Part shown: positions 34,388 to 35,215 of the stretch, piece by piece | Position numbering within the stretch: the first letter of the stretch is position 1 | How the letters are laid out: each line of letters starts with the position of its first letter | Origin: Escherichia phage vB_EcoM_NBG2 | Sequence record: NC_054925.1 | DNA length: 64,000 nt | Reading direction: 5' to 3' (one strand) | Made by a program: the position numbers and the translations under genes | The notes under the pieces: model-generated | Told to the model about the DNA's origin: nothing | Database searches by the model: none | Seen by the model: the letters and a program-made list of their open reading frames with translations, nothing else

Positions 34388-34463
34388 TGGTCGAGGCAGT
34401 AGGGATCGAACCTACGACCCAGGACTTAGAAGGTCCTTGCTCTTCCTTCTGAGCTATGCCTCG
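34388..34463 (-). tRNA. tRNA-Arg (anticodon UCU)
   Basis: Cloverleaf read by hand: acceptor CGAGGCA/TGCCTCG, anticodon loop CTTCTAA, T-loop TTCGATC, encoded CCA. Confidence 0.8.
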
Positions 34464-34467
34464 TATT

Positions 34468-34542
34468 TGGCGGACGTGATAGGATTCGAACCTATAACCA
34501 ATCGCTTAACAGGCGATCGCTCTGCCATTGAGCTACACATCC
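34468..34542 (-). tRNA. tRNA-Asn (anticodon GUU)
   Basis: Acceptor GGATGTG/CACGTCC, anticodon stem ATCGC/GCGAT with loop CTGTTAA, T-loop TTCGAAT, encoded CCA. Confidence 0.7.
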
Positions 34543-34546
34543 AAAT

Positions 34547-34633
34547 TGGTGGGGAGTGGTGGAGTCGAACCACCCGAGTCGCAATGACAATGAATTTACA
34601 GTCCACACCGCTACCCCTACGGGATAACTCCCC
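34547..34633 (-). tRNA. tRNA-Tyr (anticodon GUA), type II with long variable arm
   Basis: Acceptor GGGGAGT/ACTCCCC, anticodon loop CTGTAAA, long variable arm, T-loop TTCGACT, encoded CCA. Confidence 0.65.
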
Positions 34634-34642
34634 AAATTAATT

Positions 34643-34717
34643 TGGTGGCCCTGGGTGGAATTGAACCACCATCTGGCGATTATGAGTCGCGTGCTTGAAC
34701 CTTCCAGCTACAGGGCC
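34643..34717 (-). tRNA. tRNA-Ile/Met (anticodon CAU; probably the AUA-reading tRNA-Ile as in T4)
   Basis: Acceptor GGCCCTG/CAGGGCC, anticodon loop CTCATAA, T-loop TTCAATT, encoded CCA. Confidence 0.7.
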
Positions 34718-34718
34718 T

Positions 34719-34794
34719 TGGTGCTGATTGACGGAATCGAACCGCCGACCTTCTCATTACAAGTGAGTTGCTCTACCTACTGAGCTAAATCAGC
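34719..34794 (-). tRNA. tRNA-Thr (anticodon UGU)
   Basis: Acceptor GCTGATT/AATCAGC, anticodon loop CTTGTAA, T-loop TTCGATT, encoded CCA. Confidence 0.8.
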
Positions 34795-34799
34795 AAAAC

Positions 34800-34889
34800 T
34801 GGCGGAGGCGATAGGATTTGAACCTATGAGTCGCCGGAGCGACTGCCGGTTTTCAAGACCGGTGCATTAAACCACTCTGCCACGCCTCC
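34800..34889 (-). tRNA. tRNA-Ser (anticodon UGA), type II
   Basis: Acceptor GGAGGCG/CGCCTCC, anticodon loop CTTGAAA, long variable arm, T-loop TTCAAAT. Confidence 0.8.
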
Positions 34890-34891
34890 AG

Positions 34892-34965
34892 TCTCCATAC
34901 AAGGATTTGAACCTTGGACCTCCTGATCCCAAATCAGGCGCTCTACCAAACTGAGCTACACGGAG
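34892..34965 (-). tRNA. tRNA-Pro (anticodon UGG), CCA not encoded
   Basis: Acceptor CTCCGTG/TATGGAG, anticodon loop TTTGGGA, T-loop TTCAAAT; 3' end followed by AC rather than CCA. Confidence 0.75.
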
Positions 34966-34975
34966 TAAATTAAAT

Positions 34976-35049
34976 TGGAGCGGATAATGAGAATCGAACT
35001 CACATCATCAGATTGGAAGTCTGAGGTAATGCCATTATACGATATCCGC
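34976..35049 (-). tRNA. tRNA-Gly (anticodon UCC)
   Basis: Acceptor GCGGATA/TATCCGC, anticodon loop CTTCCAA, T-loop TTCGATT, encoded CCA. Confidence 0.8.
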
Positions 35050-35054
35050 AAATT

Positions 35055-35141
35055 TGGTGCGAGAAGTGGGACTCGAACCCACAAGGAAATCATTCCGCAG
35101 CATTTTAAGTGCTGTGCCTTTACCAATTTGACCATTCTCGC
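35055..35141 (-). tRNA. tRNA-Leu (anticodon UAA), type II
   Basis: Acceptor GCGAGAA/TTCTCGC, anticodon loop CTTAAAA, long variable arm, T-loop TTCGAGT, encoded CCA. Confidence 0.8.
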
Positions 35142-35142
35142 G

Positions 35143-35215
35143 CTGGGAATAAAGGACTCGAACCTTTGCATCCTGGAATCAAAATCCAGTGCCTTACCAA
35201 CTTGGCTAATTCCCA
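35143..35215 (-). tRNA. tRNA-Gln (anticodon UUG)
   Basis: Acceptor TGGGAAT/ATTCCCA, anticodon loop TTTTGAT, T-loop TTCGAGT; 1-nt spacer to tRNA-Leu (dimeric precursor arrangement). Confidence 0.8.

Follow-up and report, generated by a model that had tools for sequence, protein, structure and literature searches.

The subject of this analysis is a cluster of transfer RNA (tRNA) genes on the minus strand of Escherichia phage vB_EcoM_NBG2 (sequence record NC_054925.1), at positions 34388-35215 of a 64,000-nucleotide (nt) stretch that is hereafter called the window. Gene calls, synteny, near-identity to phages T2L and T6, the presence of a target site for the homing endonuclease SegB and codon statistics together make it highly probable that this locus is an ordinary T2-type tRNA operon of Tequatrovirus, the genus of T4-like coliphages, in the form that lacks the segB gene. 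This form of the operon was already known: it was published in 2008, and hundreds of phage genomes carry it in their routine annotation.

Ten tRNA genes in the array

Exactly ten tRNA genes were called by ARAGORN in the window, all on the minus strand, in the transcription order Gln, Leu, Gly, Pro, Ser, Thr, CAU, Tyr, Asn and Arg, with gaps of 0-10 nt between them. Nine of the ten were also matched by the Rfam model RF00005 (59-74 bits, E values from 2e-14 to 3e-10), the exception being tRNA-Tyr. The calls agreed exactly with the identities, order and ends given in the first-pass annotation of this DNA. The two genes for which that annotation invited disagreement, tRNA-Tyr and tRNA-Asn at 34468-34633, received the same identities from ARAGORN and in the GenBank annotation of relatives, and tRNA-Asn was matched by the Rfam model as well. 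All ten are genuine tRNA genes whose identities had been given correctly, as listed below; the amino acids with which they would be charged follow from the literature on T4, T2L and T6.

35142-35215, minus strand: tRNA-Gln (UUG); ARAGORN, Rfam 67.4 bits; encodes C74 only and abuts tRNA-Leu
35055-35141, minus strand: tRNA-Leu (UAA), class II; ARAGORN and Rfam; CCA encoded
34976-35049, minus strand: tRNA-Gly (UCC); ARAGORN and Rfam; CCA encoded
34891-34965, minus strand: tRNA-Pro (UGG); ARAGORN and Rfam; encodes C74 only, 1 nt before tRNA-Ser
34800-34889, minus strand: tRNA-Ser (UGA), class II; ARAGORN and Rfam; CCA encoded
34719-34794, minus strand: tRNA-Thr (UGU); ARAGORN and Rfam; CCA encoded
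34643-34717, minus strand: CAU tRNA, most likely tRNA-Ile2; ARAGORN, Rfam and alignment to E. coli; CCA encoded
34547-34633, minus strand: tRNA-Tyr (GUA), class II, phage-type family; ARAGORN and covariation; CCA encoded
34468-34542, minus strand: tRNA-Asn (GUU), discriminator G73; ARAGORN, Rfam 74.1 bits, the highest of the ten; CCA encoded
34388-34463, minus strand: tRNA-Arg (UCU), T2-type allele; ARAGORN and Rfam; CCA encoded

The CCA end is thus encoded by eight of the ten genes. The tRNA-Pro gene ends in ...GGAG-A-C, followed by a single T and then by tRNA-Ser, and the tRNA-Gln gene ends in ...CCCA-G-C, followed by the first nucleotide of tRNA-Leu without a spacer. The lack of an encoded CCA had been pointed out earlier for tRNA-Pro, which was correct but incomplete, as tRNA-Gln likewise stops at C74. 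T4 shares both of these CCA-less junctions, and its Pro-Ser junction is identical. In T4, the genes for tRNA-Ser (G-TAA) and tRNA-Ile (A-TAT) also lack an encoded CCA, whereas the window encodes CCA for both, at 34800-34802 and 34643-34645. Therefore, this phage should need the host CCA-adding enzyme for fewer tRNAs than T4, namely Gln and Pro only.

Close relatives and frequency of the arrangement

The tRNA regions of T2L, RB1 and RB3 were sequenced in 2008 and were found to lack segB and to carry instead a tRNA-Met (CAU), tRNA-Tyr, tRNA-Asn and an isoacceptor tRNA-Arg (Brok-Volchanskaya et al., 2008; PMC2330249). In AJ880101, the T2L record, the block reads CAU-Tyr-Asn-Arg as it does in the window, and segB is likewise absent. 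The Asn and Arg genes of the two phages are 100% identical, and the CAU and Tyr genes differ at 1 nt and 2 nt, respectively. Mean column identity in the alignment of the window to AJ880101 was 97%, a value that includes unrelated flanks. As in the window, Gln-Leu-Gly-Pro-Ser lie upstream of the block in T2L, and the small stable RNA genes rnaD and rnaC lie downstream. On the other hand, an open reading frame (ORF), trna.1, replaces tRNA-Thr in T2L and leaves it with nine tRNAs, whereas the window retains tRNA-Thr; an extra ORF (trna.2 in AJ880101) also separates tRNA-Arg from rnaD in T2L, whereas tRNA-Arg directly precedes rnaD in the window.

The 1.8-kb cluster region matched 1004 phage records, in 453 of them as a single stretch of at least 80% of the query. 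The top matches were Tequatrovirus genomes with 97.5-98.9% identity over the 1.8 kb and with the same tRNAs annotated, including tRNA-Tyr. The Tyr-Asn pair was present at a coverage of at least 80% in 433 phage records, and segB at that coverage in 126. In phage GiZh (KT184311) the ten genes stand in identical order and are followed by rnaC and a terminator, and the close Tequatrovirus genomes 121/2022-2B (OR958571) and JK38 (MK962755) carry ten- or eleven-tRNA sets. The eleventh gene, a tRNA-His (GUG) that lies between Asn and Arg in JK38 and in vB_EcoM_11B_SA_NWU, is absent from the window array. Moreover, Tyr and Asn occur at the same locus in other genera of the Tevenvirinae, namely in Karamvirus CC31 and in a Jiaodavirus.

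Two details of the eleven-gene sets were also recorded. The tRNA-His gene of JK38 lies at 1552-1627 of the examined stretch. In vB_EcoM_11B_SA_NWU (1549-2299 of the examined stretch), a 621-bp gene annotated as 'endonuclease' stands beside tRNA-His, between Asn and Arg, and over its final 99 nt it matches the 3' end of T4 segB at 100% identity.

The segB cassette of T4 and T6

The T4 records (NC_000866, 70.9-72.5 kb; X03016) contain eight tRNA genes (Gln, Leu, Gly, Pro, Ser, Thr, Ile and Arg), as the first-pass annotation had stated. That annotation had also placed Tyr and Asn where T4 has a spacer; the T4 interval is in fact occupied by the 666-bp segB gene, which lies between Ile and Arg and encodes a GIY-YIG homing endonuclease. 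The locus is otherwise shared: in both phages trna.4/.3/.2 lie upstream of the cluster, rnaD, rnaC and the e.8 side follow it, and the promoter region is common to the two. When the window was aligned to T4, the genes from Gln to Thr and rnaD/rnaC were near-identical, with the same order and anticodons, and the two sequences diverged from about nt 13 of the CAU tRNA through the end of tRNA-Arg. In this divergent stretch T4 has the remainder of a different Ile allele, segB and a very different tRNA-Arg, whereas the window has the remainder of its CAU tRNA, Tyr, Asn and another tRNA-Arg. Because the flanking Ile and Arg genes are also different alleles, the difference amounts to the replacement of one allelic cassette by another, not to the simple insertion that had been proposed.

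T6 (NC_054907) reads CAU-Tyr-segB-Arg at the same locus, with Asn gone and with CAU and Arg alleles of the T4 type. This is an intermediate layout, as expected from insertion at the Asn site. T6 also differs in lacking intact Pro and Ser genes and in having a Pro/Thr hybrid.

In co-infections of T4 with T2L, segB homing excludes a region of about 1250 bp of T2L that holds tRNA-Met/Tyr/Asn/Arg (PMC2330249). Because of these published homing experiments and of the distribution given above, T4 is most likely the atypical member of the genus at this locus, the segB cassette having cost it Tyr and Asn, and the two genes were most likely not gained by the phage studied here. The rarity implied by the first-pass annotation does not hold, and neither, most likely, does the implied direction of change. 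An unusual expansion of the T4 set, with Tyr and Asn newly inserted into a noncoding Ile-Arg spacer, would agree with the two tRNAs that the window has at that position beyond the set of eight in T4, but it is hardly tenable, since the T4 interval is segB coding sequence and no spacer, the flanking Ile and Arg genes differ in allele as in a cassette replacement, the layout was described for T2L, RB1 and RB3 in 2008, the pair is commoner than segB (433 versus 126 records) and common to other genera, and SegB homing has been shown to delete the Tyr/Asn markers.

Smaller differences from T4 and T6 were seen within the shared genes. The tRNA-Gln gene has CTGGA...TCCAG in its anticodon stem (about 35174-35192, minus strand) where T4 has TAGCA...TGCTA, compensatory changes at several positions that keep the pairing, and the rest of the gene is identical. 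The T6 'tRNA-Thr' (1192-1266 of the examined T6 stretch) is a hybrid in which the 5' acceptor strand of tRNA-Pro (CTCCGTG) continues, from a TAGCTCAG box present in both genes, into the body of tRNA-Thr, with a deletion that removes the 3' portion of Pro, the whole Ser gene and the 5' portion of Thr. Three of the seven acceptor pairs of this hybrid are mismatched, and it was not called by ARAGORN.

A predicted SegB target site in tRNA-Asn

The preferred 27-bp recognition site of SegB maps inside the tRNA-Asn gene of T2L and differs from a weaker site in tRNA-Ser at G6, A16, G18, A26 and A27 (PMC2330249). The corresponding site was located in the window.

34466-34492, minus strand: predicted preferred SegB site, 27 bp, GGTTCGAATCCTATCACGTCCGCCAAA; spans the 3' portion of tRNA-Asn and 2 further nt, in a gene identical to that of T2L

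The Asn site of the window fits the preferred-site pattern GGTTCRANTCC ... CCAR with G6, A16, G18, A26 and A27, and the Asn and Ser sites of the window differ at exactly positions 6, 16, 18, 26 and 27, as published. SegB or a relative was not found in the window, the best E value being 0.38 when the whole 64 kb was searched by tblastn with SegB. Because the window carries the preferred site and has no SegB homologue, the phage is predicted to be a natural recipient for segB homing. The T4 cassette, which consists of the 3' part of the other Ile allele, segB and the other Arg gene, would spread when SegB cuts the tRNA-Asn gene of segB-less phages and gene conversion follows.

Codon usage and the possible role of tRNA-Tyr and tRNA-Asn

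Codons were counted in 89 ORFs of the window (57 kb) and compared with approximate E. coli values of the standard K-12 table. The codons read by all ten tRNAs are over-used relative to E. coli, by 1.6-5.6x, which answers in the affirmative the comparison with host codon usage that had been suggested earlier. The phage/host ratios were 5.6x for AGA, 3.0x for ATA, 2.9x for GGA, 2.8x for TCA, 2.7x for ACA, 2.55x for AAT, 2.25x for TAT, 2.1x for TTA and 1.6x for both CCA and CAA; the first eight of these codons are all in the top 11 over-used relative to E. coli. Asn codons amount to 60.0 per thousand versus about 39 in E. coli, and Tyr codons to 46.3 versus about 28. The ten tRNAs would supplement the translation of codons favoured by this phage of 35% G+C. 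Codon supplementation is consistent for Tyr and Asn too, and it is compatible with a role in buffering host defence.

Evidence for such a role comes from other phages. Septu cleaves tRNA-Tyr in its variable arm, and the tRNA-Tyr of T6, when over-expressed or amplified through SegB, restores infection against Septu (Chihara et al., 2026; PMC13096335). In the same study, a T6 mutant deleted for the tRNA region was more sensitive to Septu, and T4, which has no tRNA-Tyr, could not escape it. The tRNA-Tyr of the T5 family, supplied by supplementation, rescues phages from retron-Eco7 (Azam et al., 2024; PMC11555353). The tRNA-Tyr of the window is 86/87 identical to that of T6 and is expected, by analogy, to act like it. 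Of the ten tRNAs, at least this one would also provide a spare supply when defence nucleases (Septu, retron-Eco7 PtuAB) destroy the tRNA-Tyr of the host.

On the other hand, the only reason for keeping Tyr and Asn could be that they supply codons and so raise translation capacity late in infection, defence playing no part. We regard this as a possible, though the less probable, explanation. It draws on the excess of Asn and Tyr codons, and on AAT and TAT ranking 8th and 9th in phage/host ratio, beside the codons of the eight classical T4 tRNAs. However, E. coli has one isoacceptor each for Tyr and Asn, and neither is rare; T4 has the same codon bias and grows well with neither gene, and the region has been called non-essential (PMC2330249). 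Moreover, the nearly identical tRNA-Tyr of T6 has a demonstrated effect against Septu (PMC13096335), and phage-type tRNA-Tyr, often beside Asn, recurs in unrelated coliphages and P1-like phage-plasmids of differing base composition. The codon-supply and defence roles are not mutually exclusive.

A wider defence role was also considered. T5 variants of tRNA-Asn and tRNA-Thr counteract PARIS (PMC12409363). At the motif where the PARIS nuclease AriB cleaves host tRNA-Asn and tRNA-Thr (UGU) (U36-A-A-U-C/N41), E. coli asnT reads UAAUC/C and thrU reads UAAUC/A, while in the window tRNA-Asn reads UAAGC/G (G39, C40, G41) and tRNA-Thr reads UAAUG/A (G40, A41). On these sequences we raise, as a tentative and rather unlikely proposal, that the T2-type block might be a multi-target anti-defence module in addition to a codon supplement, in which, besides tRNA-Tyr with its targets Septu and retron-Eco7, Asn and Thr, with the motif broken, would be AriB-resistant replacements. 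The tRNA-Asn of the related phage JoYop keeps UAAUC/A at this position.

Identity of the CAU tRNA

The tRNA with the CAU anticodon is labelled Met by ARAGORN as its default, and the first-pass annotation had called it Ile(CAU). Its best match in E. coli was a chromosomal gene annotated as tRNA-Ile, with 80.3% identity over the full length of 75 nt. It has G1-C72, C4:G69 and C5:G68, and in the alignment its anticodon arm, GCGACTCATAATCGC, is identical to that of E. coli tRNA-Ile2. Both methionine tRNAs of the host are unlike it, as the elongator gene metT has T4:A69 and A5:T68 and the initiator gene metZ has C1/A72. The 4:69 and 5:68 pairs are the major identity elements of E. coli TilS (PMC11947777). 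Moreover, ATA is used at 3x the host level in the window ORFs and ATG is not over-used. The gene occupies the position of T4 tRNA-Ile, and its allele differs from the tRNA-Ile of T4 and T6. These features support the earlier assignment, and tRNA-Ile2, which would depend on lysidine and read AUA, is in all likelihood a better label than Met.

An elongator tRNA-Met would agree with the label given by ARAGORN and by many GenBank records, including those of T2L and T6, and with the name tRNA-Met that the T2L gene received in the 2008 paper (PMC2330249). This identity is nevertheless improbable: such labels come by default from the CAT anticodon, and the evidence above argues against it throughout, namely the C4:G69 and C5:G68 pairs with an Ile2-identical anticodon arm in place of the metT pairs, the top match to a chromosomal tRNA-Ile gene, the presence of the TilS identity pairs, the over-use of ATA but not of ATG, and the position of T4 tRNA-Ile.

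Fold and family of tRNA-Tyr

The tRNA-Tyr gene was not matched by RF00005 at the gathering threshold of 29 bits. At a relaxed E-value threshold the best model of the clan was that of tRNA-Sec, with 31.8 bits against a cut-off of 47 bits. The discriminator of its product is A73 and the anticodon GUA; the variable arm is long, and CCA is encoded. Its D stem, CCGU/GCGG, lies in a shifted register with four unpaired bases after the acceptor stem instead of two. The phage homologues show no variation in the pairs of this stem, and the register therefore cannot be confirmed by covariation. Of several registers considered for the D arm, an E. coli-like one, which places a C-C mismatch in the stem, was rejected, as it finds no support in how positions 10 and 11 vary between homologues. 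ARAGORN also missed the homologue in CC31, which is annotated as tRNA-Tyr in the CC31 record. The shifted D stem probably explains both the Rfam miss and the failure of ARAGORN on the CC31 copy.

The cloverleaf was examined with RNAalifold on 11 homologues, and 11 of the 24 pairs of the acceptor, D, anticodon, variable and T stems were compensatory. This compensatory pairing indicates that tRNA-Tyr is a real tRNA. A decayed or non-canonical tRNA-like element, serving as a decoy or a processing signal and not as a translating tRNA, is very improbable. Such an element would account for Tyr alone among the ten failing the Rfam tRNA model, for a single-sequence minimum-free-energy fold that is not a cloverleaf, for an acceptor-D stem junction with four unpaired bases and for the CC31 homologue being missed; the tRNA-Tyr of T6 has also been described as relatively unstable, with a decoy role raised as a possibility. 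However, the acceptor, anticodon, variable and T stems covary across the 11 homologues, and the A73, the anticodon, the long variable arm and the encoded CCA also speak against such an element. Moreover, rescue by the tRNA-Tyr of SP15/T5 was abolished by a change of anticodon or by disruption of stems, from which the authors infer that a function in protein synthesis is required (PMC11555353).

The window gene and its counterpart in a T5-like phage have the identical variable-arm core, GTCATTGCGAC. The family is about 94% identical in rV5-like phages and about 80-85% identical in Felix O1-like and T5-like phages, and it often stands beside Asn. Among 5,426 E. coli genomes, tRNA-Tyr had no blastn match on any chromosome but matched 273 plasmid places in 269 genomes, with up to 90.8% identity, on P1-like phage-plasmids of about 95 kb. 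One of them, pE2855-2 (94 kb; 3921-4167 of the examined stretch), carries an Asn-Tyr-Thr cluster; its phage genes include a pseudogene for the tail tape measure protein and a gene for a large Dam methyltransferase. In the same genomes tRNA-Asn gave ten weak partial blastn matches only, none of which covered 80% of the query. A recent capture of Tyr and Asn from the E. coli chromosome was rejected on these grounds.

Homologues of tRNA-Tyr adjoin annotated homing endonuclease genes in the T5-like phage GreteKellenberger (411-697 of the examined stretch) and, with genes of the HNH type, in Felixounavirus records. These neighbours echo the published association of tRNA genes with homing endonucleases.

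Organization of the operon and its surroundings

Judging from its features, the functional unit would consist of a promoter, the ten tRNAs, rnaD, rnaC and a terminator, and would run from about 35311 to 34040 on the minus strand.

35285-35311, minus strand: putative MotA-dependent middle promoter, equivalent of T4 PM2; TATGCTT box at 35311-35305 and -10 element TATTAT at 35290-35285; position-based
34267-34386, minus strand: homologue of rnaD (species 2 small stable RNA), aligned from T4 NC_000866 71053-71171
34122-34260, minus strand: homologue of rnaC (species 1 small stable RNA), aligned from T4 70908-71046; rnaC is annotated equivalently in GiZh
34040-34071, minus strand: intrinsic terminator from a terminator scan; 10-bp stem AGCCCCGACC-GAAA-GGTTGGGGCT, then TTTTT

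The T4 record X03016 annotates the -35 and -10 regions of PM2 at 96-90 and 75-70 nt upstream of tRNA-Gln, and the alignment showed this stretch to be identical in the window and T4. A generic sigma-70 scan gave 3 matches versus 3.5 expected in shuffled sequence, and none at the place of PM2. The promoter was therefore placed by position from the T4 annotation. The terminator, a strong one that is also given as 34071-34048, agrees with the one annotated in GiZh and with the potential terminator after the species 1 RNA in X03016.

The T4 literature, the 0-10 nt spacers, the conserved position of PM2 and the terminator point to one polycistronic transcript. It would be driven by the middle promoter and by read-through from upstream early promoters, and would contain the ten packed tRNAs followed by rnaD and rnaC, ending at the intrinsic terminator. 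The tRNAs would be matured by host RNase P, 3' exonucleases and the CCA-adding enzyme, with CCA addition needed for Gln and Pro.

Minus-strand ORFs are dense in the window. The locus lies between the trna.4/.3/.2 ORFs and the rnaD-rnaC/e.8 side, and the same synteny is found in GiZh. The ORFs at 35313-35600 and 35603-36013 match the phage families phrog_2023 and phrog_1411 and align to T4 trna.2 and its flank. An ORF of 157 aa at 33522-33995 (minus strand), just downstream of the operon terminator, matches phrog_2280. None of these three flanking ORFs had a Pfam match, and all three PHROGs families are of unknown function. In T4 the interval from rnaC to e.8 is free of annotated genes; the records of relatives list a hypothetical protein equal in size to the product of the ORF at 33522-33995.

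Weighing of the interpretation and implications

Several points weigh against the interpretation of the locus given here. The tRNA-Tyr of T6 is relatively unstable and is itself cleaved by Septu, and its rescue effect needs over-expression or gene amplification (PMC13096335). T6 can amplify Tyr through SegB, whereas the phage studied here has no segB to drive amplification, and a single copy of tRNA-Tyr may give limited protection. The Rfam failure and the unusual D-arm register mean that normal tRNA-Tyr function cannot be assumed from the sequence by itself. The phage/host ratios depend on an approximate E. coli codon table, and the probable direction of the T4 difference (loss in T4 versus gain in this lineage) is drawn from homing experiments and distribution.

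As a discovery the finding is small, and its main value is a corrected framing: the difference from T4 reflects a homing-endonuclease cassette in T4 and not a gain of tRNAs. The Ile2-Tyr-Asn-Arg block would be expected to be overwritten on co-infection with T4 or T6. If the block does act against several defence systems, SegB homing into tRNA-Asn would trade part of the protection from PARIS for an endonuclease, and a selfish element and the tRNA nucleases of the host would together exert the balancing selection that maintains 8-, 9-, 10- and 11-tRNA sets side by side in Tequatrovirus. For phage therapy and host range, tRNA-Tyr, and possibly the variant Asn and Thr, may affect sensitivity to Septu, retron-Eco7 and PARIS.

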